The position numbers were made by a program, and so were the translations under genes. From positions 1 through 32,000 of the forward strand of contig NZ_JASMRZ010000049.1 of the NCBI RefSeq assembly GCF_030462475.1: a stretch of 32,000 nt of DNA, read 5' to 3'. This document shows, in pieces, positions 3,992 to 19,994 of this stretch (position 1 is its first letter; each line of letters begins with the position of its first letter). Source of the DNA: Variovorax sp. CAN15 (GTDB lineage Bacteria; Pseudomonadota; Gammaproteobacteria; Burkholderiales; Burkholderiaceae_C). A model generated the notes under the pieces. That model had not been told where the DNA came from, ran no database searches, and saw nothing but the letters and a program-made list of their open reading frames with translations.

Positions 3992-4017
3992 TCAAGAGCA
4001 AATCATCTGTTATCAAT

Positions 4018-4412: not shown

Positions 4413-4492
4413 GTCTTTACTCACGTACAAGAATTGATGTACATTCCCGGCACGTATCAATATCTGTGAACGTACACGGACTGAGGGACATT
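4413..4492. promoter_or_regulatory. Divergent promoter/operator region of the prophage with repeated ACGTACA-type motifs
   Basis: AT-rich 80-bp gap between the repressor start (4412) and the first forward ORF (4493). It contains ACGTACA at 4423-4429 and 4470-4476, ACGTATCA at 4452-4459, and the palindrome TGTACA at 4438-4443. Confidence 0.45.
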
Positions 4493-5174: not shown

Positions 5175-6358
5175 TGGCCTACGACACCATCAAGCTCCGC
5201 TCCCCGTTCATGGACCTGTCCGTCATGCGCCGGATCGAGCAGCAATGCATCCTGCGTTCGGGCATGCATCTCGGTACTGGCGAGATCCTGTACGAACTGC
5301 ACGCCGGCGAGCTGCTCGGGAGCTGGGATGCCCGCATCGGGATCAAGCCGATGCATGAGGAGCACGTGGCTGACAAGAACGGCCGCGTTCGGCTGCAGCC
5401 CTGCGAGCCTTACTTGCTTATCGAGGCCAGCGTGCACAAGGTGCTGCTTGGTCACAACGTCTATGGCGGGCCGACCAACTTCCTGGAGGCCGCGCGCTAT
5501 CTGGTCGCGCTCATCGAGAAGCTGCTGGACACGGATTTGCCAGCTGCAGACAACTGGACGGTGCACCGCGTTGACGTGGCGAACGTCTTCGTGCTCTCCC
5601 CTGCCGGCATCAAACAGTTTTTCGATTCGATGCAGCTCATGAGCTTTCCGCGCCGTGGTGCGAAGGCGATGAAGTGCGCGATGAGCATTTACTTCCCGGG
5701 CAAGACCACGACCGTGAAGTTCTATCACAAGGGCTCCGAGTTCAAGGTGCACGACTACGCCAGGCTGCGCCGCTTTTTCCGCACCCTCTTCGATCACTTG
5801 CACGGCACCGACGAGAAGAACCCCGAGCGCGTCGAACGCAAGCTGCGCGCTCTTCAACGTCTCGCTGATCGACGCCTGCGCGTCGAGGTCGAGATCCACT
5901 CCGACAAATTGCAGTACGACTTCGGACGGAACCCCACCGCCGCCGAGATCGGGGATGAGTACCTGCAGCGCATTCACGACAGCGAAATCGAACGAATCCT
6001 TCGCGAAGGAAAACAAGGCATGGACACCGTACGCACCGAAGAGGCCGTGTGGCAGCGCCTCCAGTCTCGCTACCCGCAAAAGCTCGCCCACGTGCTGCAT
6101 GCCTTCTGGCAAACGATGGCCACGCGCGGCGACGACAAGGCGAAGGAGCGTTACACGAAGCCGACCTTCTACCGCAATCGCAAGCTGCTCGAAGAGGTTG
6201 GCGTGAGCTGGCGCGGCAGCGACATCGTCCTGGTGGCGAACGATTCCTTAATCCATGACTTCACGCCCATGAGGGGCGACAGGCGGTTCTGCAATCAACC
6301 GGCTCGGAACCGCCCCGAGTACCACGTCAGCCGGGATTTGATGCGCCTCGCGGCGTAG
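5174..6358 (+). CDS. Rolling-circle replication initiator, filamentous-phage gene II-like (Phage_CRI / Rep_trans type)
   Basis: The ATG at 5174 gives MAYDTIKLRSPFMD..., about 394 aa. It sits first in the replication module, directly upstream of a ~100-aa candidate ssDNA-binding gene. The WTVHRVDVANVF segment resembles the conserved RxDxA motif of this Rep family. The track start at 4997 overlaps the upstream ORF and is rejected. Confidence 0.65.
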   Translation: MAYDTIKLRSPFMDLSVMRRIEQQCILRSGMHLGTGEILYELHAGELLGSWDARIGIKPMHEEHVADKNGRVRLQPCEPYLLIEASVHKVLLGHNVYGGPTNFLEAARYLVALIEKLLDTDLPAADNWTVHRVDVANVFVLSPAGIKQFFDSMQLMSFPRRGAKAMKCAMSIYFPGKTTTVKFYHKGSEFKVHDYARLRRFFRTLFDHLHGTDEKNPERVERKLRALQRLADRRLRVEVEIHSDKLQYDFGRNPTAAEIGDEYLQRIHDSEIERILREGKQGMDTVRTEEAVWQRLQSRYPQKLAHVLHAFWQTMATRGDDKAKERYTKPTFYRNRKLLEEVGVSWRGSDIVLVANDSLIHDFTPMRGDRRFCNQPARNRPEYHVSRDLMRLAA

Positions 6359-6370
6359 GAGTGAAAGCAC

Positions 6371-6694
6371 ATGAACGCAGTTGTTCAACCCGCCGGCATG
6401 CAATTTTCGCGTGCGAAACCGATGGAGGTCCTGGTCAAGGGCCGTATCGATGCTCGTCGTCGTCACGATGGCACGCACTACACGCGTGTGCTCACGCCGG
6501 CGCCGGATGCGTATAGCCGTCCGCAGGTGGTTGAGATCCGCAGTAAGCAGTCCCTCGGCGCGACGGGTGACGAAATCGAGAAGCTGTGCAAGCTCGGCGG
6601 CTATACGCGCAAGGCCTTCCGTACGACCGACAAGGAAACCGGTGAAACCACGATGGTGACGCCGGTGGATCTGACGCTCGACGAGATCGAGTGA
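6371..6694 (+). CDS. Candidate ssDNA-binding protein (gene V equivalent), 107 aa
   Basis: The size and its position immediately after the Rep gene match the inovirus g5p slot. No motif recognised with certainty. Confidence 0.45.
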   Translation: MNAVVQPAGMQFSRAKPMEVLVKGRIDARRRHDGTHYTRVLTPAPDAYSRPQVVEIRSKQSLGATGDEIEKLCKLGGYTRKAFRTTDKETGETTMVTPVDLTLDEIE

Positions 6695-6867
6695 TGCCCT
6701 CCCCCGCCGCCGCCCTCGCCTTCGCCGTCGCTGGCTTCTTGCTGGCGATGGTTGTTGTCGGGCTCATCTGGGTCGACGGCGAACGCGCTGCCAAGCGTGA
6801 TCGCATTGAGCGCGTGCGCCGTCGCGATCACTCGAAGGTGCCTTCAATCCACTCGGCTTCTCGCTGA
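6694..6867 (+). CDS. Small single-pass membrane protein (57 aa), not in the supplied ORF track
   Basis: Hand translation gives MPSPAAALAFAVAGFLLAMVVVGLIWVDGERAAKRDRIERVRRRDHSKVPSIHSASR. The ATG overlaps the previous stop (TGATG at 6692-6696). It has an N-terminal TM helix and a basic tail. Confidence 0.5.
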   Translation: MPSPAAALAFAVAGFLLAMVVVGLIWVDGERAAKRDRIERVRRRDHSKVPSIHSASR

Positions 6868-6880
6868 TCCGAGGAAAACC

Positions 6881-7174
6881 ATGGCTGCAATTGATGTGTC
6901 TGCTCTCGGTACTGCCTTGCTTGAGAACGCGCAGGCCGTGTCTCTCGTCGGCGTCGCTTGCCTCGGCATTTGGGGTGCGATCAGCGCATTCCGAGTGCTT
7001 CGAGAGCTGCTTGAAATCGGTTCGTCGGCGTCGTCTGGCAGGGGTGGCGGCGGTGGCGGGTCGTCTTCGTTGGATCGGCTTGCTGAGGCTCGTGCGCACG
7101 CGCAGCAGATGCAGTTGACTGGCGAGGGGCAGTCCGCTGCGTATGCAGAGCATGAGGCGCGAGGCGGCAAGTGA
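6881..7174 (+). CDS. Leaderless coat-protein paralogue with Gly/Ser-rich and charged C-terminal extension (97 aa)
   Basis: The ATG at 6881 follows GAGGAAAACC. Residues 2-44 (AAIDVSALGTALLENAQAVSLVGVACLGIWGAISAFRVLRELL) align without gaps to the predicted mature major coat (AAIDVAAVVTDIGAQAAPIGLIGVAVLLIYGAVKAFKWVRAAL), with about half the positions identical. Confidence 0.6.
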   Translation: MAAIDVSALGTALLENAQAVSLVGVACLGIWGAISAFRVLRELLEIGSSASSGRGGGGGGSSSLDRLAEARAHAQQMQLTGEGQSAAYAEHEARGGK

Positions 7175-7272
7175 TCCGCTGGCTTGTCCGCACGTTCGGC
7201 CGTAGTTTTGTCTGGAAGCTCGGCGCGCTCGCTGCCGTCGCGGCGGTGGCTTTCGTCAAGGCGTACTTCTGA
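7171..7272 (+). CDS. Micro-ORF, 33-aa membrane peptide (g7p/g9p-like slot), not in the supplied ORF track
   Basis: The GTG at 7171 overlaps the upstream stop (GTGA). Translation gives MIRWLVRTFGRSFVWKLGALAAVAAVAFVKAYF. Its stop overlaps the next ATG (TGATG at 7270-7274). Confidence 0.45.
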   Translation: MIRWLVRTFGRSFVWKLGALAAVAAVAFVKAYF

Positions 7273-7472
7273 TGGCTGATCCCACTGTCATCGAATGCGC
7301 ATCCGCGTGCACCGTCACCGTGGTGCACGAACTCTCTCTTCCTCCGCTTCAGCTCAGCACTGAAGAGGGGGCACAAATCGCGCTCGCCATCAGCGCGGTC
7401 TGGGTCGTTGGCTGGGCCATCCGCATGGTCCTGAAGACGCTCAGTACTTCCGATGGAAACCAACCTGAGTAA
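7272..7472 (+). CDS. Small membrane protein (66 aa), minor virion/assembly protein slot
   Basis: Coupled ORF with a hydrophobic helix (GAQIALAISAVWVVGWAIRMVL), located just upstream of the major coat gene. Confidence 0.55.
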   Translation: MADPTVIECASACTVTVVHELSLPPLQLSTEEGAQIALAISAVWVVGWAIRMVLKTLSTSDGNQPE

Positions 7473-7485
7473 AGGAAATTTCGAC

Positions 7486-7689
7486 ATGAACGCAAACATC
7501 GTTCGCGGCCTCGTTGCCGCTGGTGCTCTGACCCTCGTGGGCGGTGCGAATGCCGCCGCCATCGACGTGGCGGCTGTGGTCACCGACATCGGCGCACAGG
7601 CCGCTCCGATCGGTCTGATCGGCGTGGCCGTGCTGCTGATCTACGGCGCGGTGAAGGCCTTCAAGTGGGTGCGCGCAGCTCTGAGCTGA
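7486..7689 (+). CDS. Major coat protein (g8p-like) with cleavable leader
   Basis: The ATG at 7486 follows AAAGGAAA. The leader is MNANIVRGLVAAGALTLVGGANA with an A-x-A cleavage motif. The ~44-aa mature peptide has an acidic N-terminus (AAIDVAAVVTD), a hydrophobic core and a basic C-terminus (KAFKWVRAALS). That pattern is the inovirus coat signature. Confidence 0.8.
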   Translation: MNANIVRGLVAAGALTLVGGANAAAIDVAAVVTDIGAQAAPIGLIGVAVLLIYGAVKAFKWVRAALS

Positions 7690-7811
7690 TCCCCCGCTGA
7701 GCGCACCTGGTGGACGCGCCAGGTGCCTTGTTCAAAGCGGTCGCGTTGACTGCTTCGCACAGGGCAACGACACATGGGCCTCTTCGTCATCATCGCAATC
7801 CTGGGGGCCTT

Positions 7812-9284
7812 GTGGCTCATCTTCTCCGCCTGATCCTGGCCGCCGTGCTGGCGGTTTTCTCGGTGTCGGTGCATGCGCTGATTCCGGTATCGGACTCCTG
7901 GTCTTTCAACGCCGCGCAGTACGGTGATTCCGGCAAGCAAGGGTCTGGCTTCGCGTCTGCGCAAGCTGCTTGCGATGCGTACGTCAACGCGCAAAAGGCT
8001 TCCATACCGTCGTGGACCTTTGGTTCTGGTGCTGTCGGTGCGGCCGCATCGCCCGCGAGTATTTGGGGTGACTTCAAGTGCACCGTCTATGCCAATAACG
8101 GGTCTATCGGTCCGATGCAGGCTGGTCTTTACAAGAGTGCTGGTGGTAGCTGTCCCGCTAACAGCACGCTTGTTTCTTCGTTGAATCAGTGCTCATGCAA
8201 CGCGAACTATGAAGAGGATTCGACGCACACGAGTTGCGTGCCCTCTAAGTCGCGGTGGGAGAAGGCGTGTGAGGGCAACATTGGCAAGCGCTACAACTTT
8301 CAGTCCGCTGGTAAGAACCAGGCTGGCGGCTGCCAGACCGAAATTAACAACGTCAATTCGCCCATCGAGGGCGATACGGGTGGCTTGCCCGATTCGTTCG
8401 GTTGCCAGGTGCGTTTCGTTGATGACGGCAGTAAGACGTCGGCGCTTGATCCAGACACCAAGGAGTGGGTCACGAAGGGCCTCGGCCGTGTTACCGGCGA
8501 GACCTGTGTTGGTACTGGCGTGCCAGTGCCTAGCGACGCTCCCGAGGGCACCACGCAGGAATCCGAGGGCAAGAACGATCAGTGCCCCTATGGGCTGGTG
8601 AAGGGTGTCAACGGGCAGATCGTGTGCGCGTACAGCGATCCCAATGGCACCATCGAAGGCACGGAGACCAGCACCGTCAAGAACCCCGACGGCACGTCGA
8701 CTGACACCAAGAAAGAGATCAAGTGCGATGGTGGTGTGTGCACGACGACGACAACAACGACGACACGCGATAGCGCGGGCACCATCGTCGGCACGAAGAT
8801 CGATGAGAAGAAAGAGTCCATCGGGGAGACGTGCAACAAGGACCCGGGCAATAAGGTGTGTGCCACCACGGGCGGTGGAGGTTCTGATGGTGGTGCTGGG
8901 TTCAGTGGTACGTGCGAGGCTGGCTTTCAGGCCAAGGGTGAGGATCCTGTGTTGAACGCGATGGCGCTTGAACAGTACAAGCGCAATTGCGAGACCTTCC
9001 GTACCGACATGGAGCCGTCGACGTGGGTTGTTGCCGAAGGCCAGAAGACCGGCAACGCCATGGAGGGCAATCCCAACAATGGGTCCGTAAGTGTCGGCCC
9101 CGGCAACTTCGACCAGTCCGATGCACTCGGCGGTGGCGGTTGCAATCTCAACAAGACGGTCGTGGTGCGCGGCTACAGCGTCGCCCTGCCCTTCAACGTC
9201 CTGTGTGACCCGCTCGCTGTGTTGGGTCAGATCCTGGTGGCCGTCTCGCTCCTGTTGGCGGCTCGTATCGTCACAAGGGGGTAA
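7812..9284 (+). CDS. Adsorption / minor coat protein (g3p-like), secreted, Cys-rich, C-terminally anchored
   Basis: The in-frame GTG at 7812 gives a signal peptide (AHLLRLILAAVLAVFSVSVHA). The track start at 7710 is an alternative. The protein has many Cys residues, a poly-Thr tract (CTTTTTTTRD), Gly-rich linkers (TTGGGGSDGGAGFSG, GGGG) and a terminal TM anchor (LGQILVAVSLLLAARIVTRG). It sits between the coat gene and the g6p-like gene. Confidence 0.65.
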   Translation: MAHLLRLILAAVLAVFSVSVHALIPVSDSWSFNAAQYGDSGKQGSGFASAQAACDAYVNAQKASIPSWTFGSGAVGAAASPASIWGDFKCTVYANNGSIGPMQAGLYKSAGGSCPANSTLVSSLNQCSCNANYEEDSTHTSCVPSKSRWEKACEGNIGKRYNFQSAGKNQAGGCQTEINNVNSPIEGDTGGLPDSFGCQVRFVDDGSKTSALDPDTKEWVTKGLGRVTGETCVGTGVPVPSDAPEGTTQESEGKNDQCPYGLVKGVNGQIVCAYSDPNGTIEGTETSTVKNPDGTSTDTKKEIKCDGGVCTTTTTTTTRDSAGTIVGTKIDEKKESIGETCNKDPGNKVCATTGGGGSDGGAGFSGTCEAGFQAKGEDPVLNAMALEQYKRNCETFRTDMEPSTWVVAEGQKTGNAMEGNPNNGSVSVGPGNFDQSDALGGGGCNLNKTVVVRGYSVALPFNVLCDPLAVLGQILVAVSLLLAARIVTRG

Positions 9285-9286
9285 CC

Positions 9287-9586
9287 ATGCCACTCATCCT
9301 CGCGCTGTTGTTGCGCGGTCTTCTCTGGGTCTCCGGCAGTGTCGCCGGCCAGGTGCTGCTGCGACTCGGCATCGGTGTCGTCACGTACACCGGCACCAAT
9401 GCCAGTCTCGCCTGGTTGAAGTCGCAGGCCGTCTCTGCGCTTCAGGGCATGGGCGGTGATTACATCGCCCTCCTCTCCTACATGAAGGTCGGTGTCTGCA
9501 TCAGCATCATCACCAGCGCCATCGTGGCGCGTGCTGTCGTCACGGGCATTACCAGTGACAGCGTCAAGCGCTGGGTGTTGAAGTGA
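9287..9586 (+). CDS. Minor coat protein g6p-like (DUF2523-type)
   Basis: 99-aa multi-hydrophobic-segment protein (GQVLLRLGIGVVTYTGTNASLAWLKSQ...). This is the pattern and position of DUF2523 proteins that precede Zot in Pf/Xanthomonas-type inoviruses. Confidence 0.65.
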   Translation: MPLILALLLRGLLWVSGSVAGQVLLRLGIGVVTYTGTNASLAWLKSQAVSALQGMGGDYIALLSYMKVGVCISIITSAIVARAVVTGITSDSVKRWVLK

Positions 9587-9750
9587 CTGATCTCGCTTTG
9601 TCGTTGGTGTGTTTGGCGCTGGCGTTCGTCAGTTGGGCTGGTGCGAATCGTGCGATCGATGCTGATGACGACAGTACGGTCATTCGATATCTGGTTGTTA
9701 TGGCTGGCCTTGGCGGTATCGGGTTGGCCAACACTGTTGGGCGGTTCTGA
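9583..9750 (+). CDS. Small membrane protein (55 aa), not in the supplied ORF track
   Basis: The GTG at 9583 overlaps the g6p-like stop (GTGA). Translation gives MTDLALSLVCLALAFVSWAGANRAIDADDDSTVIRYLVVMAGLGGIGLANTVGRF. Its stop overlaps the Zot ATG (TGATG at 9748-9752). Confidence 0.4.
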   Translation: MTDLALSLVCLALAFVSWAGANRAIDADDDSTVIRYLVVMAGLGGIGLANTVGRF

Positions 9751-10958
9751 TGCTGTATCTCCGCACTGGGGCCAATGGCTCCTGCAAGTCCCTCTTCACG
9801 CTCAAGGATGTGCGCGAGAAGCAGCTCGCCGAGCTGCGGCCGGTCTGCGTCATCGTCGGTGACGATACCGATCCGACCAGGCAGTACGTGAAGATCAAGC
9901 CAGCGATCATGGAGGAGTTCGGCTGGAAGACCTGCCAGTTCAAGGACTGGTGGGCGCAGGCCGATGGCACGATCTTCCTGGCCGATGAATGCCATAACTA
10001 CCTGCCCAAGCGTCCGAATGGATCTGCAGTTCCGCAGTACGTCAGCCGCCTGGCCGAGCATCGAGCTCGTGGCATGGACTTCTTCCTGCTTACCCAGCAT
10101 CCGAGCAACATCGACAGCTTCGTGACGAAGCTGGTCGGGTCGCCTGGCTGGCACCAGCATCTCAAGCGGGCGTTCGGTGCGTCCAACGTGACCAGCGTGA
10201 TCCAGTGGTCGGCGGTCAACAACCAGTGCGAGAAAGATGGCTCGGGCAAGTCTGGCCAGGTCGACATGCGCAGTCAGCCGAAGGATGTGTTCGTCTGGTA
10301 CGACAGCGCCGAGCTGCACACCGGTAAGCGCAAGATCCCGCGCCAGTTCTGGATGGTCGCCGTCGGTGTGCCGCTGGCGCTCGGCATGTTCTTCATGGCC
10401 GCGAAGCTGCTCTGGGATCGCACCCACAAGTCCACCGTGGTGCAGGCTGGCCAGCCTGGCCAGGCCGGACCTGGAGCGCCTGGTGCGGCAGCTGCTGCAC
10501 GCGATCACGTGATGACGCCAACCGAGTACATCGCCAGCTACAAGCCACGTGTGCCTGGCTTGATGCATTCGGCGCCGGCGTACGACAAGCTGACGGAGCC
10601 GAAGCGTGTGCCGGTGCCGGCCGCGTGTGTCTCGATGCCGTCGAAGGGTTGCAAGTGCTACACGCAAGATGCGACGCCCTATCCGGTCGACCAGGCCATG
10701 TGCGATGGCCTGGTCAAGCATGGCGCGTTCTACGCTTTTGCGGCTGAAGGTGAGCGCAAGGCCTACGATCAGCCGCGTATCGCCCGCCAAGGCCCGGAAA
10801 CGGCCCTTCCTGGGGCTGTCGCTCCGATCCTGATCGACGGGGGCCCTAAGTCGCCCGGTGCCGCTACGACGGTCGCAACCGCGGTGCCGCCAGATCTGGG
10901 CAGTCAGCCGCGTGTCCGGCCTGGCTCGCCATGGTCGTTCGAGCTCCCTGCACGTTGA
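9750..10958 (+). CDS. Zonula occludens toxin-like assembly ATPase (g1p / Zot family)
   Basis: N-terminal P-loop (LRTGANGSCKS) and a Walker-B-like IFLADECH. It also has the EHRARGMDFFLLTQHPSNID block typical of Zot/g1p. A central TM segment (FWMVAVGVPLALGMFFMAAKLLW) is followed by a periplasmic tail. Confidence 0.8.
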   Translation: MLYLRTGANGSCKSLFTLKDVREKQLAELRPVCVIVGDDTDPTRQYVKIKPAIMEEFGWKTCQFKDWWAQADGTIFLADECHNYLPKRPNGSAVPQYVSRLAEHRARGMDFFLLTQHPSNIDSFVTKLVGSPGWHQHLKRAFGASNVTSVIQWSAVNNQCEKDGSGKSGQVDMRSQPKDVFVWYDSAELHTGKRKIPRQFWMVAVGVPLALGMFFMAAKLLWDRTHKSTVVQAGQPGQAGPGAPGAAAAARDHVMTPTEYIASYKPRVPGLMHSAPAYDKLTEPKRVPVPAACVSMPSKGCKCYTQDATPYPVDQAMCDGLVKHGAFYAFAAEGERKAYDQPRIARQGPETALPGAVAPILIDGGPKSPGAATTVATAVPPDLGSQPRVRPGSPWSFELPAR

Positions 10959-10964
10959 AGTGAA

Positions 10965-11010
10965 AAAGCCGCCCTCGGGCGGCTCCGCCCTCGGGCGGCT
11001 TCGTTTTTTC
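10965..11010. terminator. Tandem GC hairpins with flanking A/T runs, acting as a bidirectional intrinsic terminator between Zot (+) and the ParB-like gene (-)
   Basis: The sequence is AAAAAGCCGCCCTCGGGCGGCTCCGCCCTCGGGCGGCTTCGTTTTTT. It contains two copies of a CCGCCC-TCG-GGCGG stem-loop, with an A-run upstream and a T-run downstream. Confidence 0.7.
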
Positions 11011-11021
11011 GCACGCGAAAC

Positions 11022-12080
11022 TCACACTATGGTCGCGCGGATCTCGATGGCGAGATCTCGGAGCGTCAGGTCGATGTTGTTGGCACCGAGGATGTAGGCG
11101 GCGGTGTCTTCGGTGCTCGGGTAGTTGTCTATCCATCGCGCGATTCGGCGCATGGCGTCGAGCTTAGTTGCCGTCACGAGCTGGTGGCCTGACTGCCATG
11201 CCTCTACTACGTATTCGCACATGACCTGTTGTTGTTCAGCGGTCAGCTTTCCGATGACTGCGTCGAGATCGACGTTCTCGCTGGGCTTGAGTTCGTCGAT
11301 CAGATCGTCAAAGCCATGACTTGCCGTCCAGCTCGGTGTCTTTTGCTCTGTGACTGGTGCGTTCTTGGCTTTCGCTTTCTTTTTCGCGGAGGCCTTTTTC
11401 TCGGCTGCGATCTTCTCCTTGATTTCGGCCAGTAGCGCGCGTGCTTCCGTGCGGCCGGCCTTGCCGGTTTCGATGGCGTCGAGCAGCTGCTGTTGCGGTC
11501 TGCCCCACGCGAGCGTTTCGATCTGCGAGATCGTTAGCACCAGGTCGAGGTCTTCCGTCTTGCCGCTGTCCAGCAGCATGCGCGCGCGCCAGCTCAGCTT
11601 CGTGGCCGCTGCTAGGTGCTTCGACACCCATGGCAGCGATTTGCCCGTCAGCGCCGCGATGGGTTTCAGCGCCTGGTGCTTGTCGTAGAGCTTCTTTACG
11701 TTGGCCGCGAGATCCTGCACGCTCAGGTCTTCGCGCTGGATGTTTTCCACGAGCTGCATTTCGGCCGCCTTGGCCGCGTCGATCTCGCCGATGAGGGCGG
11801 GCACGGCGGTAAGGCCTGCCAGGTGTGCTGCGCGTACGCGTCGCTCGCCGGCGATGATGATGAAGCTGCCCATCTTGTCCGGATCTGGGCGCAACAGGAC
11901 GGGCTGCATCATGCCCTGCTGCTTCATGCTCTCGGCCAGCTCCTGCAGCGTTGCTTCGTCGAAGAACGTGCGGACCTGGTCCTCCGCGCGGATGTTCTCG
12001 AGCGAGATGAATTGCAGCGCAGGCGCTGCCGGTGTGGTGGTCGCCGGTGTTGCCGGCGTCTTGCGGGTCTTCGTGGCCAT
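11022..12080 (-). CDS. ParB/Spo0J-like N-terminal domain protein (352 aa) with a Lys-rich linker and an unassigned C-terminal domain
   Basis: ParB-box motifs QPVLLRPDPDKMGSFIIIAGERRVRAAHLAGLTAVPALI. A KKASAKKKAKAK linker follows. The ~130-aa C-terminal region was not recognised. Confidence 0.75.
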   Translation of the reverse strand: MATKTRKTPATPATTTPAAPALQFISLENIRAEDQVRTFFDEATLQELAESMKQQGMMQPVLLRPDPDKMGSFIIIAGERRVRAAHLAGLTAVPALIGEIDAAKAAEMQLVENIQREDLSVQDLAANVKKLYDKHQALKPIAALTGKSLPWVSKHLAAATKLSWRARMLLDSGKTEDLDLVLTISQIETLAWGRPQQQLLDAIETGKAGRTEARALLAEIKEKIAAEKKASAKKKAKAKNAPVTEQKTPSWTASHGFDDLIDELKPSENVDLDAVIGKLTAEQQQVMCEYVVEAWQSGHQLVTATKLDAMRRIARWIDNYPSTEDTAAYILGANNIDLTLRDLAIEIRATIV

Positions 12081-12083
12081 GGC

Positions 12084-12386
12084 TCAGTACTCCTGGCGGA
12101 AGGTGAAGCCGTCGGCCAGGATCGACTTGTCGTAGGATTTCCACGCGATGTGAGAGCCGCGCGGCAGGTTGTCTGGTGCGTCGAGGTTTCCTGCCATCTG
12201 CCAATCCATGAAGAAGTCGCCCGTAACGTCGCCTGCGCATTCATGAGCGTATGGATGGCGGCATGGTGTGAATGCGCCTCCGAAGGTCGGTGGCGTCACC
12301 AGCTCGAGCTGGGCCTGGCTGGGGGTGGTCGCCGGCGCGAGTTGCGCTGCGGCGAAGGATGCGAACGAGATCTGAGTAGCGGACAT
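12084..12386 (-). CDS. Hypothetical protein (100 aa), first gene of the reverse-strand ParB-like operon
   Basis: The ATG at 12386 is preceded by AGGAG (CAGGAGTCCACATG on the minus strand). It ends 3 nt before the ParB-like ATG, and the ParB-like SD (AGGAG) lies within its last codons. No family recognised. Confidence 0.55.
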   Translation of the reverse strand: MSATQISFASFAAAQLAPATTPSQAQLELVTPPTFGGAFTPCRHPYAHECAGDVTGDFFMDWQMAGNLDAPDNLPRGSHIAWKSYDKSILADGFTFRQEY

Positions 12387-12444
12387 GTGGACTCCTGGAA
12401 GTTGGGCTGTTGAAGGGAATACCTTCAGCAGTCGCTTCCTCGCT

Positions 12445-12463
12445 CCCCTCGCAGGGCGAGGGG
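12445..12463. other. Short perfect hairpin CCCCTCGC-AGG-GCGAGGGG
   Basis: 8-bp stem with a 3-nt loop in the phage non-coding region. The same CCCCTCGC arm recurs at the apex of the large hairpin at 12494-12604. Confidence 0.5.
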
Positions 12464-12493
12464 CGGGGGGGAGTGGGTTGCTCGTGCAACAAG

Positions 12494-12604
12494 AAAAATC
12501 CGGCCAGTGCCGGAATCCCGCATAAAAAACACCCCCGTTGCGCCCCTCGCAAAAGCGTGGGGTCAACGGGGGTGTTTGCGGGATTCCAAGCTGGTCGGAT
12601 TTTT
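12494..12604. other. ~111-nt imperfect hairpin in the main phage intergenic region (candidate packaging signal and/or origin structure)
   Basis: Three paired blocks: 12494-12507 with 12591-12604 (one G-T pair), 12512-12522 with 12577-12587, and 12528-12540 with 12564-12576. An apical extension CCCCTCGC-AAAA-GCGTGGGG has one mismatch. In total ~45 bp are paired, with small bulges. Confidence 0.6.
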
Positions 12605-12756
12605 CAGTGGGTAGCTATCGCCAAAAGCACCAGGCGTGACATAGCGCAGCGGGAAGGTAGCGAAGCGGACGGCTGGCGCGACTGGTGACTTGGCGATGCG
12701 GCCTCGAGGTCACGCAGCTGGTGCACACAGATCCGCCGCGGGGCGGCGCCCTCCCC

Positions 12757-13017
12757 TCAATCTGCCCGCATGTCGGGAGTTGAGATCGTCAGCTTGAGGC
12801 CGTCTCGCAGCTCCGGCGTATTCCTGGTCGAGCGCATTTCTCTGTTCGCGTCCATGAAGCCATCGCGCACAGCTATACGAATGACCCAGTAGAGAAGCCA
12901 CAGTGTGATTGCTGTCGAGATCGCTCCAATGATGAAGAGCACGACGAGCTCCTGTCCTGCCTGGTGCTGTGCCTGGCGCACCATCTGGTCAAGGTGTCTT
13001 TGTAGTTGTGGGTCCAT
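12757..13017 (-). CDS. Small membrane protein (86 aa), hypothetical
   Basis: Unbiased composition with one clear TM helix (LVVLFIIGAISTAITLWLLYWVI). It lies inside the predicted prophage, next to attR. No family recognised. Confidence 0.45.
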   Translation of the reverse strand: MDPQLQRHLDQMVRQAQHQAGQELVVLFIIGAISTAITLWLLYWVIRIAVRDGFMDANREMRSTRNTPELRDGLKLTISTPDMRAD

Positions 13018-13018
13018 G

Positions 13019-13048
13019 AAAAAGGCCTCCGATCGGAGGCCGTATTTT
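13019..13048. terminator. Hairpin GGCCTCC-GATC-GGAGGCC flanked by an A-run and a T-run (bidirectional terminator-like)
   Basis: 7-bp GC stem at 13024-13041, with AAAAA at 13019-13023 and TATTTT at 13044-13048. On the minus strand the stem contains the GGAGG that would serve as the SD for ORF 12757-13017. Confidence 0.5.
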
Positions 13049-13121
13049 GCTGGTAGTCTTAACGAGATTTACATTTTTTCAAGCGAATTTCGCTTGACAT
13101 AAGCCCGATTGTGTTCTGCTA

Positions 13122-13149
13122 AATCGAGCTTTTGCACATTGTATCCAAT
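13122..13149. repeat. Second dif-like copy (attR): AATCGAGCTTT-TGCACA-TTGTATCCAAT
   Basis: The spacer and right arm match the 4029-4045 copy except for one G/A difference. The left arm does not resemble a XerD arm (4/11 to ATTTAACATAA). This is what a phage-derived half-site would look like. Confidence 0.55.
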
Positions 13150-13197
13150 GCCACACCAGTTCGGACGACGCTCAAACCTTCTGAGCCTAGACGAAGC

Positions 13198-13878
13198 TCA
13201 CCACTTGCCGTCCTTGGGAACAGCCTTGACCGCGCTGGCCTTTGCATTCGCTGCCGCGGCGATCATCGAGGCGGCTTCCGAGCGGTTCGCCTTGTTGGCG
13301 AAGTCGACGGCGGTCATGCCCAGCTGGTTCTTCATGGTCGTGTCGGCGCCCTCTTCCAGCAGCAGCTTCACGGCGTCGTTGGAGCCGTACATGGCGGCCA
13401 TCATCAACGGCGTGGTGCCGTTGGGCGATTGCGCATCGATGAAGGCGAAGTTCTCGAGCAGCGTCTTCATGATCGCGATCTGGCCGCTGGTGGCTGCGTA
13501 GTGCAGCGGCGTCCAGCCGGTCTTGTTGACGGCTGCGTCGCGCTTGAGAAGCTGGGCGACGATGTCCTGCTGACCCTTGATCGCGGCCAGCATCAGCGGG
13601 GTTTCGTCCTTGGGACTGGCGATGTCCACATCGGTCTGCGGCGCCTCGATCAGCACCTTGATGACTTTCGGCGATGGCTCGCGCAGCGCGATCAGCAGGC
13701 CCGTCTGGCCGTGTTCGTCGCGGGTGTTGGGGTCGAACCCGCGCTGGATCAGGTTGCTGACGCCGCTGGCGTTGTCGCCGCGAACGGCACGGAAGAAGTC
13801 TTCGAATGAGCCGGCGTGCGCTGCAAAAGATGCAGCAATGACAATGAGATAAATCGATTTCTTGAAGTAGTTTTTCAT
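13198..13878 (-). CDS. Secreted ankyrin-repeat protein
   Basis: Signal peptide MKNYFKKSIYLIVIAASFAAHA. Several ANK repeats follow (TPLMLAAIKGQQDIVAQLL, GWTPLHYAATSGQIAIMKTLL, GTTPLMMAAMYGSNDAVKLLLEEGAD). Confidence 0.85.
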   Translation of the reverse strand: MKNYFKKSIYLIVIAASFAAHAGSFEDFFRAVRGDNASGVSNLIQRGFDPNTRDEHGQTGLLIALREPSPKVIKVLIEAPQTDVDIASPKDETPLMLAAIKGQQDIVAQLLKRDAAVNKTGWTPLHYAATSGQIAIMKTLLENFAFIDAQSPNGTTPLMMAAMYGSNDAVKLLLEEGADTTMKNQLGMTAVDFANKANRSEAASMIAAAANAKASAVKAVPKDGKW

Positions 13879-14681
13879 GATTTGACTTCCCTGAACAATG
13901 CTTCGAAATTGTCGCTCGTGGCCTTGGCGACGGCCTCTACGGGCATCTGCCTGAGCTCCGCGATCTGCTGCGCCACGTAGGGCACGTAAGACGGGTTGTT
14001 GGTCTTGCCGCGGTACGGCACCGGCGCGAGATACGGGCTGTCGGTTTCGATCAGCATCCGGTCCAGCGGCACGAAGGCGGCCACGTCGCGCAGGTCCTGC
14101 GCCTTCTTGAAGGTCAGGATGCCGGAGAACGAGATGTAGAAACCGAGGTCGAGCGCGGCGCGGGCCACCTCGGCGGTCTCGGTGAAGCAGTGGAACACGC
14201 CGCCGGCCGCGCCAGGCGAGGCATCCTCGCCCTCTTCCTTCAGGATCGCCAGCGTGTCCGCCGAAGCCTCGCGGGTGTGGATGATCAGCGGCTTGCGGGT
14301 CTGCCGGGCGGCTCGGATGTGCACGCGGAAGCGGTCACGCTGCCACTCCATGTCGGAGATGCTGCGGCCGCCCTTGCGCTCTTCCATCTGGTAGTAGTCG
14401 AGGCCGGTTTCGCCGATGGCCACCACACGCGGCCTCTGAGAAAGGCGCACCAGGTCGTCGACCGAAGGCTCGGCGATGTCCTCGTTGTCGGGGTGCACGC
14501 CCACGCTCGCCCAGAAGTTGTCGTAGCTGGCGGCAAGGGCCTGCACTTCGTCGAATTCCTCGAGCTTGGTGCAGATGCAGAGTGCCCGGTCGACCTGAGC
14601 CGCGGCCATGGCGGCGCGGATCTGCGGCATCTGGCCCGCGAATTCGGGAAACGTGAGGTGGCAGTGGGAGTCTGTGAACAT
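13875..14681 (-). CDS. TatD-family metal-dependent hydrolase (YcfH-like)
   Basis: The ATG at 14681 gives MFTDSHCHLTF, the HxH metal motif. Other motifs are AIGETGLDYY, PLIIHTREA, GVFHCF and ETDSPYLAP. Its stop overlaps the ankyrin gene start. Confidence 0.9.
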   Translation of the reverse strand: MFTDSHCHLTFPEFAGQMPQIRAAMAAAQVDRALCICTKLEEFDEVQALAASYDNFWASVGVHPDNEDIAEPSVDDLVRLSQRPRVVAIGETGLDYYQMEERKGGRSISDMEWQRDRFRVHIRAARQTRKPLIIHTREASADTLAILKEEGEDASPGAAGGVFHCFTETAEVARAALDLGFYISFSGILTFKKAQDLRDVAAFVPLDRMLIETDSPYLAPVPYRGKTNNPSYVPYVAQQIAELRQMPVEAVAKATSDNFEALFREVKS

Positions 14682-14778
14682 CGGAAATGATGGAGTGCGC
14701 GGCGCATGCCCTTCTGGGGCCTCCATGGGAGGTTGCGCCGTCGACCGAGTTCCGCGTCACGAGGACGGGGCGGAAAAC

Positions 14779-15165
14779 TCAGATGGTTTGCGTGGGGCGG
14801 TCGGAGGCCATCGAGCCGCCGAGCGCCGCTTCGATGCGCGCCTTCAGCTGGCGCGACTTCTCGTCGGAAGGAAAACGGATGCCCACGCCCGGAGCCCGGT
14901 TGCCGGCGGCGCGCGGCGGCGTGATCCAGGCGACCTTGCCGGCCACGGGGTAGCGCTGCGGATCTTCCGGTAGCGTCAGCAGCACGTAGACGTCGTCGCC
15001 CAGGCGGTATTCGCGCGTGGTCGGGATGAAGATGCCGCCCTCCGCGAACAGCGGGATGTAGGCCGCGTACAGCGCGCCCTTTTCCTTGATGGCGAGCTGG
15101 ATGACGCTCGGCCGGGCGGGTGCGGAAGATGCTGCGGGCGCAGCGGATGCGGCAGGTTGGTTCAT
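14779..15165 (-). CDS. pilZ: PilZ-domain protein (type IV pilus assembly PilZ type)
   Basis: 128 aa with LYAAYIPLFAEGGIFIPT...LGDDVYVLLTLPED...GKVAWITP...GVGIRF. The conserved holB-pilZ-tatD context supports the call. Confidence 0.8.
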   Translation of the reverse strand: MNQPAASAAPAASSAPARPSVIQLAIKEKGALYAAYIPLFAEGGIFIPTTREYRLGDDVYVLLTLPEDPQRYPVAGKVAWITPPRAAGNRAPGVGIRFPSDEKSRQLKARIEAALGGSMASDRPTQTI

Positions 15166-16178
15166 GGTCGGCGACGAGCGGCAGAGTTTAGGGTGGTTCG
15201 CGCTTCGCTCACAAGCGCTTCTAGCATGAGGCCCGCGTTGAACGGGTGCTCCGCGGTTCTCGCGGCGCTGGCAAGCGACTTCGACCAGCGCGCGAGCGCC
15301 AGCCGCGGCGGCGCCGCCGGCAGGTCGGCGGCGTCGAAGAAACGGGGCGTCGCGCCGTTGCCGACGGCCATCAGGTCATGGCAGAGCTTCTGCAGAGCGC
15401 CGACGGCCTGTGCAGGCGCGTGATCGGCCAGAGCGCCGACGTCGCCACGCGCCATGGCCTTGGGCAGCAGCGCCCAGGCCTTGGGCGACTGCCCTGCCCG
15501 CGCGAGCCGCAGTGCATCGCTGGGCCGGCCGCCGGCAGCGCGCAGCAAGGCGGCCGCGTCGGCCGCCGGCACGTCCAGCGCGACCAGCCAGGCTTGCGCC
15601 TCGGCGGTTTCGGGCCAGGGCAGCGTGAAACCGAGGCAGCGGCTGCGAATGGTCGGCAGCAGCTGCCAGGCGGCTTCGGTCGCGAGCACGAAACGCACGT
15701 CACCGACAGGCTCTTCGAGCGTTTTCAGCAGCGCATTGGCGGTGATAGTGTTCATGCGCTCCGCCGGATACACCAGCACCACCTTGCCACGTCCACGCGC
15801 GCTGGTGCGCTGGGCAAAGCCGACCGCGTCGCGCATCGCCTCGACGCGGATCTCGCGGCTGGGCTTGCGCTTCTTGTCGTCGATGTCCGCTTGCGCCTTT
15901 TCGTCGAGCGGCCAGCCGAGCTCCTGCATCGCCACCTCGGGCATCAGCACGCAGAGGTCGGCATGCGTGCGCACCTCGATGGCGTGGCAGCTCGGGCAAT
16001 TGCCGCAGGCGGTGCCCTCCTCCGTCGGCTGCTCGCACAGCCAGGCGGAAGCCAGGGCCAGCGCCAGTTCGTACTGGCCGATGCCGGACGGGCCTTGCAG
16101 CAGCCAGGCGTGGCCGCGCTGGCGCAGCAGCTCGGTCAGCGGCCGGCGCAGCCAGGGAGACAGTGCCTCGGCGCTCAT
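15162..16178 (-). CDS. holB: DNA polymerase III subunit delta prime
   Basis: 338 aa with HAWLLQGPSGIGQ (degenerate P-loop), a CGNCPSCH zinc module, KVVLVYPAERMN and the TIRSRC sensor motif. It overlaps the tmk stop (ATGA). Confidence 0.9.
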   Translation of the reverse strand: MSAEALSPWLRRPLTELLRQRGHAWLLQGPSGIGQYELALALASAWLCEQPTEEGTACGNCPSCHAIEVRTHADLCVLMPEVAMQELGWPLDEKAQADIDDKKRKPSREIRVEAMRDAVGFAQRTSARGRGKVVLVYPAERMNTITANALLKTLEEPVGDVRFVLATEAAWQLLPTIRSRCLGFTLPWPETAEAQAWLVALDVPAADAAALLRAAGGRPSDALRLARAGQSPKAWALLPKAMARGDVGALADHAPAQAVGALQKLCHDLMAVGNGATPRFFDAADLPAAPPRLALARWSKSLASAARTAEHPFNAGLMLEALVSEARTTLNSAARRRP

Positions 16179-16831
16179 CAGGCTCGACCTCCGGCCAGCA
16201 CGCCGCGCGCGGTCAGTTCGGACTCGATCTGCTGCCAGACCTGCTCGCGCGTCTGGCTGGCGTCGATGCGCACGAAGCGCGGCGCATCGGCGCTAGCGCG
16301 GTCCGCATAGCCCTGCGCCACGCGACGGAAGAACTCGACCGGCTGGGCCTCGAACTTGTCGGGCACGCGGGCGCCGGCCAGCCGCTGCGCGGCGATCTCG
16401 GGTGCCAGGTCAAACCACAGCGTGATTTGCGGCTGCAGCAGCTTTGGGCTGCCGGCCTGCGCCTGAACCCACTGCTCCAGGGTCGACAGCACGGCGGCGT
16501 CGAAACCGCGCCCCGCGCCCTGGTAGGCGAAGGTGGCGTCGGTGAAACGGTCGCACAGCACCACGTCGCCGCGTGCCAGTGCGGGCTCGACGACCTGCGC
16601 GATGTGATCGCGCCGCGCTGCGAACACCAGCAGCGATTCGGTCAGCGGGTCCATCGGCTTTTCGAGGATCAGCCCCCGCAGCGTTTCAGCCAACGGCGTG
16701 CCGCCGGGTTCGCGGGTGCGGACGACCGTGCGGCCCTGCGCCTTGAACAGCGCCTCCAGCGCATCGAGATGACTCGACTTTCCCGCGCCGTCGATGCCTT
16801 CCAGCGTCAGAAACAAGCCTTGGTCACTCAT
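16178..16831 (-). CDS. tmk: Thymidylate kinase
   Basis: The ATG at 16831 gives [20 protein letters not shown] (P-loop). Other motifs are [21 protein letters not shown] and [15 protein letters not shown]. The start overlaps the mltG stop. Confidence 0.92.
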
Positions 16832-17853
16832 TGGGTCGTCGCCTTCGGTCTGGAATCGCCGCCGCCGCGCTGGTAGCGGTTGACCGCACGGTTGTGGTCG
16901 TTGAGCGAGCTGCTGAACTGGCTGGTGCCGTCGCCGCGCGACACGAAATACAGCGATTTGCTTTGCGCCGGCTGCACCGCAGCCAGCAGCGCCGCCTTGC
17001 CCGGCATGGAAATCGGCGTGGGCGGCAGGCCGCCGCGCGTGTAGGTGTTCCACGGCGTGTCGGTCTGCAGGTCTTTCTTGCGCAGGTTGCCGTCGAAGGC
17101 GGTGCCCATGCCGTAGATGACGGTCGGGTCGGTCTGCAGCGGCATGCCGATGCGCAGGCGGTTGGCGAACACTGCTGCGATTTCCGCCCGGTCGTTGGCC
17201 TTTCCTGTCTCCTTTTCGACAATACTGGCCAGAACAAGCGCCTCATCGGCCGATTTCAGCGGCAAGTCGGAGGCGCGGGCGGCCCAGGCGGCTTCGAGCT
17301 TCTTGTCCATGGCGCGCATCGCGCGCTGCAGCAGGGCGATGTCGGTCGAGCCCTTCGAATAGGTATAGGTGTCCGGGAAGAATCGGCCTTCAGGATGCAC
17401 GCCCGGCCTTCCCAGCTTGGCCATCAGCGCCTCGTCGGTGATGCCCACGCTCTCCGGCTTGAGCTGGTCGGCCTTGGCGAGCGCAGCGCGCACCTGGCGG
17501 AAGTTCCAGCCTTCCACCAATACAAGGCTTCGCGTGGCCTCCTCGCCGCGCACCAGGATGCTGAGCAGAAGCTTGGGCGTGACGCCGCGTTCCAGCTCGT
17601 AGCTGCCGGCGCGCATCTGGCGGTCTTGCCCGGAAATGCGGAACCACAGGTAGAGGAGTTGAGGCTGGACGTCGACGCCGGTATCGGCCACCGCCTGGGC
17701 AATGCCGCGCGGCGTGGTGCCGGGTTCGACCGACAGGTCGACGCTGGGCGCGGGCAGCTTGAGCGGCTGGTGCACCCACCAGAGGCCGGCGCCGCCGAGC
17801 GCGAGCGCGACCAGGGCGGCGAGCAGGAAAAGCGTGAGGAAGAAGCTGCGCAC
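16828..17853 (-). CDS. mltG: Endolytic murein transglycosylase MltG (YceG family)
   Basis: GTG start, an N-terminal TM segment, then YceG motifs ([61 protein letters not shown]). Confidence 0.9.
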
Positions 17854-17978
17854 GGATGCGATGTGAGGATGACGGAGGAAAACAGGAGGCTGTTAACGAA
17901 AAATCGGTGCCCTTGCGAACCGCAGGGCTGGAGGCCCTGCCGCCCCGAAGGAACAGGCCCGGCCATGATAATTCAGCG

Positions 17979-18905
17979 ATGACCACTGTCGTTCTCAATG
18001 GGGTGACCGCCCTCTCCCATCTCGGCGTGATCCGCGCCGAAGGTCCGGACGCCGCGAGTTTCCTTCACGGCCAGCTCACACAGGACTTCTCCCTCCTCGG
18101 CGCCTCCGACGCCCGCCTTGCCGCCCTTTGCACCGCGAAGGGCCGTGTGATCGCGAGTTTCCTCGGCATCAAGCCGCAACCTGAGCTGATCCTGCTGGTG
18201 TGCAGCCGCGACATCCTCGCCGCCACGCTCAAGCGGCTGTCCATGTACGTACTGCGCGCCAAGGTCAAGCTGACTGATGCGACCGAGCAGGTCGCCCTCT
18301 ACGGCCTGGCCGGCACCGCGCTCACCGCCAACGGGCTCGATGCGGCTGCCCAGCCCGGCAAGCGCACGGCCGTCGGCGATGAAGTCAGCGCCGTATCGCT
18401 CTACCCCGCCGACGGCGTTCCGCGCGCGCTGTGGATCGCCCCGGCCGGCCACGCGGCGCCCGCGGGCCCGGCCCTGGACGACAACCTCTGGCAGTGGAGC
18501 GAGGTTCGCAGCGGCATCGTGACCCTGACCACGCCGATCATCGACGCCTTCGTGCCGCAGATGATCAACTACGAATCCGTGGGAGGGGTGAATTTCAAGA
18601 AGGGCTGCTATCCCGGCCAGGAAGTGGTCGCGCGAAGCCAGTTCCGCGGCACGCTGAAGCGGCGCACCTATCTCGTCCAGGCCGATGCGCCGGTGTCCGT
18701 GGGGCAGGAAGTGTTCGCTGCCGGCGACGCCGAACAGCCTGTCGGCACCGTGGCGCAGGCCGCGCCGGCCCCCGATGGCGGCTGGTCCGCGCTGATCTCC
18801 ATGCAGATCGCCGCGCTGGAGGCTGGTGGCCTGCGCGCGGGTGCGGCCGACGGCCCGGTGCTCACGGTCGAGCCACTGCCCTATCCGCTGCTCGAAGACA
18901 TCTGA
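17979..18905 (+). CDS. ygfZ: Folate-binding Fe-S cluster repair/tRNA-modification protein YgfZ
   Basis: The ATG at 17979 gives MTTVVLNGVTALSHLGVIRAEGPDAASFLHGQLTQD. The signature KGCYPGQE motif is present. Confidence 0.85.
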   Translation: MTTVVLNGVTALSHLGVIRAEGPDAASFLHGQLTQDFSLLGASDARLAALCTAKGRVIASFLGIKPQPELILLVCSRDILAATLKRLSMYVLRAKVKLTDATEQVALYGLAGTALTANGLDAAAQPGKRTAVGDEVSAVSLYPADGVPRALWIAPAGHAAPAGPALDDNLWQWSEVRSGIVTLTTPIIDAFVPQMINYESVGGVNFKKGCYPGQEVVARSQFRGTLKRRTYLVQADAPVSVGQEVFAAGDAEQPVGTVAQAAPAPDGGWSALISMQIAALEAGGLRAGAADGPVLTVEPLPYPLLEDI

Positions 18906-18947
18906 GCCTGCGCTCCCCTTACCCCCAACGCCCCTGAAAGCGGCGTT

Positions 18948-18979
18948 TGGCGCTATCGAACAGATGGCGCCATTTTTTT
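18948..18979 (+). terminator. Intrinsic terminator-like hairpin after ygfZ
   Basis: TGGCGC (18948-18953) pairs with GCGCCA (18967-18972), followed by TTTTTTT (18973-18979). The loop is long (13 nt). Confidence 0.45.
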
Positions 18980-19055
18980 GCGCGTCTTTTAACCCCGTTG
19001 TCGCTGCTGGCCCGTGCAGGCCTTCACCGATCAACTCCGGCAAGGAAGACACATC

Positions 19056-19994
19056 ATGAAGCGCAGACTTTTTTCCACCGTCCTGGCCGTGACCGCCATG
19101 ACTGCCGTGGCCTCGCTCCCGGTCCGCGCGCAGACCTCGGAACGACCCTATGTTCCGTCCACCCCTTCCAGCCGCATCGGTTCGCTGATGCAGGTCAGCG
19201 TGGTCGACCGCGGCACCGGCGCGGAGCTGCCTATCTACCGCCATCGCGGCGAATACTGGGTGGCCGGCCGTCCTGGCGCGCGCTATGCCATCCGGGCGCG
19301 CAACGCGATGGGCGAGCGCATCATGGCCGTGATGTCCGTGGACGGCGTCAACGTGGTCACGGGCGAAACCGCTGGCGTCGGGCAGAACGGCTACGTCTTC
19401 AGCGCCCGCGAGCGCAGCGACATCACCGGCTGGCGCAAGAGCGATTCGCAGATCGCCGCCTTCGAGTTCGCCGCGGCCGGAAATTCCTATGCAAGCCGCA
19501 CCGGCCGGCCCGACGATGTGGGTGTGATCGGCGTCGCGATGTTCCGCGAGCGCATGCCCGAGCCGCCGCCTCCGCCGGTCACGCCGTTCCCGCGCCGCGA
19601 CGACCATGGTGGATACGGCCCCGAACGCGAGCGCCGCAGCGAATCGTCGTCGTACCAGGGCGACGCGCGGGCCAAGGCAGGCGCAGCCGACAACGCCGCT
19701 CCCGCTGCGGCCGCCGAATCTTCCGGCAGCCTGGCACGCCAATCCGCGCCCAGCCCAAGCCTGGGCACCGCTCACGGCCGCCGCGAAACCTCGTACGTTG
19801 GCAAGACGACTTTCGAGCGCGCCCAGCCGTCGCCGGACGAGGTGGTCCGCATCCGCTACGACAGCCGCGAGAACCTCGTGGCTGCAGGCGTGATCCCGGT
19901 GCCGCCCCCGCCGCGTTGGCCGCGTCCCGCGGGTCCGTCGCCGTTCCCCGGCTCGGACCCGGGCTACGTGCCCGATCCTCCGAGCCGCTACTGA
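19056..19994 (+). CDS. Secreted hypothetical protein with a Pro-rich, low-complexity C-terminal half
   Basis: The ATG at 19056 follows AAGGAAG. The signal peptide is MKRRLFSTVLAVTAMTAVASLPVRA. A globular N-terminal region is followed by PEPPPPPV and PVPPPPRWPRP tracts. No family recognised. Confidence 0.6.
   Translation: MKRRLFSTVLAVTAMTAVASLPVRAQTSERPYVPSTPSSRIGSLMQVSVVDRGTGAELPIYRHRGEYWVAGRPGARYAIRARNAMGERIMAVMSVDGVNVVTGETAGVGQNGYVFSARERSDITGWRKSDSQIAAFEFAAAGNSYASRTGRPDDVGVIGVAMFRERMPEPPPPPVTPFPRRDDHGGYGPERERRSESSSYQGDARAKAGAADNAAPAAAAESSGSLARQSAPSPSLGTAHGRRETSYVGKTTFERAQPSPDEVVRIRYDSRENLVAAGVIPVPPPPRWPRPAGPSPFPGSDPGYVPDPPSRY

Follow-up and report, generated by a model that had tools for sequence, protein, structure and literature searches.

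How did a 28-nt site at positions 13122-13149 come to lie between an ankyrin-repeat gene and an inovirus in this window (the whole stretch of Variovorax DNA analysed here, 32,000 nt long), and to share 17 nt, save one base, with a second site at the far end of that inovirus? Integration of filamentous phages at dif through the host XerCD proteins is well established, and the site is very probably the ankyrin-side junction of a 9.1-kb inovirus prophage that was integrated at dif by means of host XerC and XerD, the kind of element known as an IMEX. Established Xer biology (PMC4246890, PMC6744903, PMC9226527) leads us to infer that the reaction depends on host XerC and XerD, whose genes (xerC and xerD) lie outside the window; which strands are exchanged first is likewise inferred. 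The two junctions, the body of the prophage, and the host genes on either side of it are as follows.

4018 to 4045, minus strand: left junction, on the TreY side, a regenerated complete dif, ATTGGACACAA-TGTGCA-TTATGTTAAAT, the same sequence as the dif of the prophage-free contig L160 (see below)
13122 to 13149, minus strand: right hybrid junction, on the ankyrin side, with XerC arm ATTGGATACAA (13149-13139), centre TGTGCA (13138-13133), and degenerate XerD arm AAAGCTCGATT (13132-13122)
4046 to 13121, plus strand: inovirus prophage body, 9104 nt from att to att, with a GC content of 0.55-0.66 against 0.66-0.72 in the flanks
5 to 3991, plus strand: host MalQ/TreY fusion gene, cut off at the start of the window; 26 nt separate its stop codon from the XerD arm
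13198 to 13878, minus strand: host ankyrin-repeat gene, a conserved neighbour of dif on its XerC-arm side in Variovorax and other Comamonadaceae

The sequence TGCACATTGTRTCCAAT occurs at two places only in the window, 4029-4045 and 13133-13149. The right copy (TGCACATTGTATCCAAT) and the left copy (TGCACATTGTGTCCAAT) are separated by a spacing of 9104 nt, differ by a single G/A mismatch, and have no further near-copy in the window. The chance expectation for such a 17-mer match was 0 in 100 dinucleotide-preserving shuffles, which confirms the original prediction that spacer and right arm duplicate the left-end sequence save for one G/A difference. Directly before the left copy lies ATTTAACATAA (4018-4028), which when reverse-complemented is exactly the canonical XerD arm TTATGTTAAAT, an arm that the window contains in exact form nowhere else; directly before the right copy lies AATCGAGCTTT (13122-13132), which agrees with the XerD arm at 4 of 11 positions (7 mismatches). 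Compared as a whole, attP and dif are thus identical at 17/17 or 16/17 positions over XerC arm and centre, and at 4/11 over the XerD arm. The right-hand arm had been described as unrelated to a XerD arm; the match is indeed poor, and the description is slightly too strong, since the corresponding arms of sister phages keep A or T at certain positions (A at position 3 is retained throughout, and positions 9 and 11 are mostly A and T).

The right junction lies 48 nt from the ankyrin stop codon, at the same spot as dif in empty sites. TatD-based retrieval places the host in Variovorax. Among the Variovorax loci gathered in this way, a dif of the form nnnnnAYACAA-TGTRYA-TTATGTTAAAT is found in many species 30-48 nt past the ankyrin stop, oriented with its XerC arm toward the ankyrin gene, and none of 80 TatD neighbourhoods contained phage genes. 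The treY/ankyrin junction was considered as a genus-wide landmark and rejected, because treY adjoins dif in close relatives only. Almost every Variovorax species differs in the five outermost bases of the XerC arm. Translation of the flank upstream of dif in V. paradoxus NBRC 15149 (L007, ~12130-12200) gives a tail that resembles a repressor, LDLDRSTLVRITQCALC, and may have been left behind by an IMEX, since lost, that replaced the XerC side of dif. Wide differences exist within the genus in the XerC-side half of dif, and this locus hints that phage-derived sequence may explain some of that variety.

The surroundings of the site have some features of a replication terminus. Cumulative GC skew peaks at ~17.5-18 kb, with a sign change ~4.5 kb past the ankyrin-side junction, and looks terminus-like; two KOPS-like motifs lie to the right of the site, both pointing toward it. 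With so few motifs and a window of 32 kb, GC skew and KOPS polarity give a weak fit to a terminus region. A type VI secretion VgrG gene (23251-25617) lies ~10 kb from dif.

A search for exact matches to the PilZ protein encoded nearby led to a prophage-free version of the locus from the same species, an 86-kb metagenome contig (L160) with the same gene order. Its junction holds one intact dif and reads, in order, ankyrin stop, 48 nt, ATTGGACACAA-TGTGCA-TTATGTTAAAT, 26 nt, treY stop. The flanks of L160 match the outer flanks of the window without a mismatch across 132 nt toward the ankyrin gene and 467 nt toward treY, and the two sequences agree at 98.2-98.6% over 16 kb. In BLAST comparisons, L160 aligns to window positions 1-4047 and 13133-25174, with a 19-nt overlap between the alignments that takes in the 17-nt repeat; the window is therefore this chromosome with a 9104-bp insertion bounded by the repeat. 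An insertion of this form is what recombination of dif with an attP that has the same XerC arm and centre leaves behind. The two ends had been read from the outset as asymmetric hybrids of dif and a degenerate attP, and the L160 empty site, together with the lack of an integrase and a second pair of empty and occupied loci (both described below), upholds that reading.

We also considered whether a fossil repressor 3' end lies behind the outer ATTGG and the ankyrin flank, and rejected this candidate. The peptide tail showed no excess over other host flanks, and the DNA similarity was marginal, with an equal or higher score in 42 of 1000 shuffles and in 1 of 20 controls. The idea is unnecessary, because L160 shows ATTGG to be this host species' own arm.

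The one variable base bears on the reconstruction of attB and attP. It is C in the L160 empty site (G in window orientation) and T at the ankyrin-side junction (A), so that one additional substitution or a strain polymorphism is required. The attB of the original prediction agrees with the L160 dif, at the ankyrin/MalQ-TreY junction, at 27 of 28 positions, and departs from it at this base, where L160 carries the G found in the window's left site. The predicted attP stands, because ATTGGACACAA (TTGTGTCCAAT in window orientation), the arm that it assigns to the phage, recurs as the phage-side arm of a related prophage (L101) in a host with another arm, AATGCACACAA. Exact searches returned no match to the predicted attP 28-mer among viral contigs (IMG/VR) and none to the predicted attB 28-mer among metagenome contigs (JGI).

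We lean slightly toward an attB with A in the window strain (ATTTAACATAA-TGCACA-TTGTATCCAAT) and a phage with G, in which case the G of L160 would be an ordinary strain polymorphism. L160 and the window differ at ~1.5% of sites, which gives a chance of ~15% for a SNP somewhere in an 11-nt arm, and both Y variants are present among the dif sites of other Variovorax species. The A variant is also found beside the ankyrin flank (2247-2305) of L161, a slightly different strain with a TatD identical to that of the window; this contig, however, ends inside the arm and so may itself come from a lysogen. Further points against an attB with A are that the sole empty site observed has G and that an empty site with A is absent from the metagenome contigs scanned. 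Only a little short of even is the chance that attB and attP both had G (C) and that the right junction, being functionless, mutated from G to A after integration. The empty site of the window lineage would accordingly be predicted to run from the ankyrin flank through ATTGGATACAA or ATTGGACACAA to TGTGCATTATGTTAAAT.

The genes and other features between the two junctions are these.

4020 to 4412, minus strand: Cro/CI-type HTH repressor, 130 aa as called (PF15943, phrog_638)
5174 to 6358, plus strand: rolling-circle replication initiator pII (Phage_CRI, phrog_702)
6371 to 6694, plus strand: ssDNA-binding protein (phrog_8473)
6752 to 7174: second coat-B-like ORF
7453 to 7689, plus strand: major coat protein (Phage_Coat_B)
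7812 to 9284, plus strand: pIII-like adsorption protein (phrog_4352)
9287 to 9586, plus strand: pVI-like DUF2523 protein
9750 to 10958, plus strand: Zot/pI assembly ATPase
11022 to 12080, minus strand: ParB_N-domain accessory protein
12084 to 12386: 100-aa ORF without assigned function, upstream of the ParB_N gene
12757 to 13017, minus strand: 86-aa single-pass membrane protein, the first gene past attP, with homologues at the same position in sister phages
13024 to 13041, no strand assigned: GC-rich terminator-like hairpin between attP and the 86-aa ORF, 5/7 of its pairs covarying in relatives

By Pfam and PHROG assignments the inovirus module is complete and lies on one strand (pII, ssDNA-binding protein, coat B, pIII, pVI, and Zot/pI). 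A megablast search of the prophage against GenBank phages returned nothing beyond one 50-nt match. Upstream of gene II, at 4867-4897, a hairpin with a perfect 10-bp stem, TGTCAGGCGG-(11 nt)-CCGCCTGACA, is probably the replication origin or a packaging signal; the 40 nt around it (4863-4903) reach 95-100% identity between phages that elsewhere agree at only ~65%. The ParB_N-domain gene and its 100-aa partner (11022-12386, minus strand) had no counterpart called in the sister prophages examined. The small membrane protein carries the motif ...LY..I+.A[VI]RDG... and is always first after attP, in the window (12757-13017, minus strand) as in L103 (3197-3442), L106 (3114-3329), and L107 (3944-4180); in the IMEXs of Xanthomonas and Vibrio this place belongs to the gene for the Xer activation factor.

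Some inoviruses use integrases or transposases of their own (PMC4471427, PMC7549136), and several phage ORFs here lack an assigned function. The 17-nt repeats might then be a target-site duplication, or the att of a phage-encoded integrase, serine recombinase, or transposase, with their likeness to dif a coincidence. We consider this highly improbable: the target is a canonical dif at a conserved chromosomal position, and Pfam and PHROG searches of the prophage ORFs of at least 60 aa, sense and antisense, found no tyrosine or serine recombinase domain and no transposase domain. The genes flanking the repeats likewise encode no integrase. The original prediction had named an integrase encoded just outside the repeats as a finding that would count against it, and none is there: the flanking genes are ankyrin, TatD, PilZ, HolB, and Tmk on the ankyrin side and MalQ/TreY on the other.

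The left junction is embedded in the repressor gene, whose 3' end spans the XerC arm and centre and whose TAA stop codon (4020-4022) is supplied by the host XerD arm. Repressor C-termini therewith encode the junction: they read ...TQCALC or ...IQCILC, each followed by the stop, or ...HNVHYVK. In the free phage the repressor would, by its reading frame, gain 17 aa, reading through a second dif-like site that adjoins attP (see below). Short and read-through forms are both present as proteins in public databases, one of them (P0061) being a read-through, attP-form repressor that ends in ...TQCAKARFSQTQSGLCQPNFG. In one structure-level search, the att-adjacent HTH protein modelled as a generic Cro/CI repressor.

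Repressor homologues gave access to related prophages, in which the same logic is seen. The dif of Variovorax sp. tm (L002) is empty and reads ATCGCACACAA-TGTGCA-TTATGTTAAAT. The occupied loci L097 to L100 are of the same species as L002, with flanks identical at 391/400 and 394/400 positions, and in them an inovirus lies between the sites ATCGCACACAA-TGTGCA-TTACGAATTAA and GAATCACACAA-TGTGCA-TTATGTTAAAT. In Variovorax sp. V118 (AP028663; L096, 3797-17280) two different inoviruses lie in tandem at dif with three sites, and each internal site consists of the XerC arm of one phage and the degenerate arm of the next, which by its sequence appears to be a classic IMEX array built by re-use of the regenerated dif. 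The related prophage L101 has the phage-side arm ATTGGACACAA noted above, and contig L159 carries an attP-type junction with the same degenerate arm. Phage and host have the centre TGTGCA in common; the common centre is TGTATA in L102 (Paracidovorax) and TGAGTG in L107, and because these also agree, the phage centre matches whichever centre flanks it. Sister phages insert in the same way yet have different replication proteins, a further argument against a recombinase of the phage's own. Relatives found in IMG/VR with pII (L082-L095) were mostly trimmed prophages without informative att sites. One of them, L095 (IMG/VR 2648501573), has repeats at 3-19 and 9195-9211 that consist of XerD arm and centre (ATTTAACATAA-TGCAAA) with differing XerC-side arms, and some relatives may, to judge from this sequence, mimic the XerD half of dif instead.

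In the integration that we propose, the circular phage would carry the attP ATTGGACACAA-TGTGCA-AAAGCTCGATT, in which XerC arm and 6-bp centre are (nearly) identical to host dif and the XerD arm is degenerate. A crossover inside the 17-bp identity with dif (ATTGGAYACAA-TGTGCA-TTATGTTAAAT) would yield two products. The product beside treY would be a complete dif (4018-4045), presumably still able to resolve chromosome dimers, that donates the repressor its stop codon; the product beside the ankyrin gene would be a crippled hybrid (13122-13149), whose poor XerD arm should shield the prophage from FtsK-driven excision, by analogy with TLCφ and the gonococcal genetic island. The dif/difGGI arrangement of the latter is thought to block such excision (PMC6744903); the gonococcal island is 57 kb long and without phage genes, whereas the window element is an inovirus.

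The attP of TLCφ of Vibrio cholerae also has XerC arm and centre like those of dif and a degenerate XerD arm, dif is regenerated on one side, and the phage has no integrase (PMC4246890, PMC6744903, PMC9226527). The window element resembles it in all these respects: matching XerC arm and centre, degenerate XerD arm, regenerated dif, and no integrase. TLCφ is a satellite, whereas the window element is a full inovirus. TLCφ in Vibrio needs a XafT-type factor to use its degenerate XerD arm. XafT (HTH plus DUF3653), in contrast, was not detected in the window phage: Pfam searches for DUF3653, run at E values up to 10 on the repressor and small ORFs and up to 0.01 on the larger ORFs, found none. A T at position 1 and a G at position 5 of the degenerate arm are reported to be important for XafT-driven recombination (PMC9226527); the window arm has neither, and most sister arms have one. 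A second dif-like site adjoins the degenerate arm in the window phage, which is another difference from TLCφ.

The Xanthomonas phages Cf1c, XacF1, and φLf are similar in that attP lies within the 3' end of an HTH repressor gene, in a high-GC proteobacterial host, and in that XerC arm and centre are common with dif while the XerD arm is degenerate. The product of XacF1 ORF12, which also contains the XacF1 attP, shows weak homology to the window repressor (32% over 85 aa). In these phages a DUF3653 gene adjoins the repressor (XacF1 ORF11; PMC6744903), whereas the window phage has the 86-aa membrane protein there; XacF1 ORF11 itself matches DUF3653 by Pfam, and tblastn of ORF11 against the window gave noise only. 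XacF1, unlike the window phage, is without a second dif-like site.

VGJφ offers a further comparison. As in the window phage, its attP is double-stranded and has a single crossover site in the 3' end of a repressor-like gene (ORF154), reversible in principle. In VGJφ, attP has a genuine XerD arm, and homology in its 7-bp centre is confined to the XerC side (PMC4246890), whereas the window attP combines a degenerate XerD arm with a centre identical at 6/6 positions. VGJφ encodes XafV (ORF136) beside attP (bioRxiv 10.64898/2026.06.12.731946), and the window phage has no homologue of it: tblastn with ORF136 gave no credible match in the window or in six sister prophages, the weak matches falling in stop-interrupted frames or lacking protein-like sequence. 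By position, and weakly by sequence, the att-adjacent HTH protein is a homologue of XacF1 ORF12 and VGJφ ORF154, which are not activators. CTXφ resembles the window phage in having two dif-like sites close together in the attP region and in forming tandem arrays at dif. The CTXφ sites are inverted, and a forked hairpin of ssDNA is the substrate, whereas the window sites are direct repeats 30 bp apart and, in a predicted ssDNA fold, do not pair with each other.

The element thus lies at the chromosomal dif, is bounded by hybrid sites of which one is a complete dif, and has no integrase of its own. It belongs to a known kind, the IMEXs, yet each of the three classes described for these covers it in part only.

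Because phage and host centres are identical, the junction sequences are compatible with either order of strand exchange. The TLC-like architecture of attP, together with a centre that matches at 6/6 positions across three host centres, leads us to prefer a complete exchange of both strands, as in TLCφ. In a pathway using XerC alone, as in VGJφ and CTXφ, one strand pair would be exchanged at the boundary of XerC arm and centre, and replication or repair would resolve the pseudo-Holliday junction, so that neither XerD catalysis nor an activator would be needed. XerC-first integration requires no FtsK-like activation (PMC4246890; bioRxiv 10.64898/2026.06.12.731946), and because no XafT- or XafV-like gene was found, this pathway for the same IMEX stays a serious alternative, to which we give rather less than an even chance. 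Against it, a degenerate attP XerD arm with a fully homologous centre is the signature of TLCφ, not of VGJφ (PMC4246890), and the centre tracks that of the host at 6/6 positions in three host types, which exchange by XerC alone does not require.

Next to the degenerate XerD arm the window phage carries the following features.

13092 to 13119, minus strand: second dif-like site, GCAGAACACAA-TCGGGC-TTATGTCAAGC, in direct orientation with the hybrid site and 2 nt from the degenerate arm
13080 to 13096, no strand assigned: hairpin or palindrome CAAGCGAATTTCGCTTG, overlapping the outer part of the XerD-like arm of the second site

The motif AYRCAA-N6-TTATGT occurs twice in the window, in the true dif and in the second site, with 0 occurrences expected by chance. 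Two sites again lie in tandem in the sister prophages of L096 (in each of its two phages), L097, and L101, as they do, judged by eye, in L107; no other case appeared among ~100 loci compared, and L102 is without a second site. We then scanned IMG/VR and JGI metagenomes with the pattern ACAATGTGCA-N29-30-TTATGTMAA, in which the second XerC-like arm is left unspecified. This returned 40 distinct sequences, 19 of them with A[ACT][AG]CAA exactly 6 nt before TTATGT (per-site chance ~0.0015); the other 21 are mostly AT-rich and look like chance matches, and include one near-miss (L146, GCACAA). In an alignment of 17 distinct sequences the arms of the second site are (near-)invariant, and the 6-nt centre is variable and unrelated to that of dif. 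The consensus nnnnnAYRCAA-N6-TTATGTCAAsC holds in at least 17 distinct relatives (L096, L097, L101, L107, and L112-L159, with the window). The spacer between degenerate arm and second site is 1 or 2 nt long, and the conservation is therefore not explicable by a fixed reading frame. The XerD-like arm overlaps the covarying hairpin, in which one pair covaries (GC in 10 sequences, CG in 6); part of the conservation may therefore serve structure. No description of a direct second site beside attP was found in the literature searched.

These observations suggest, tentatively and as a proposal more apt to fail than to hold, that the attP of this group of Comamonadaceae inoviruses has two parts, a TLC-like crossover site and an adjacent, direct, putative binding site for XerC and XerD. 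The second site would load both proteins beside the crippled arm, where the loaded site could stabilise the synapse, activate XerD, or control excision, replacing the absent XafT or XafV.

Several unrelated inoviruses, and tandem arrays of them, occupy the dif locus of Variovorax. The main addition made here is a clean case from this genus (Comamonadaceae), verified against an empty site. Its mechanistic interest lies in a TLC-type attP that has no detectable Xer activation factor and has a conserved second dif-like site beside the crossover. If the second site binds Xer, it would be a new answer to the problem of recombining a poor XerD arm without FtsK; and if the two-part attP is real, it would constitute a DNA-encoded rather than a protein-encoded route by which an IMEX hijacks Xer.
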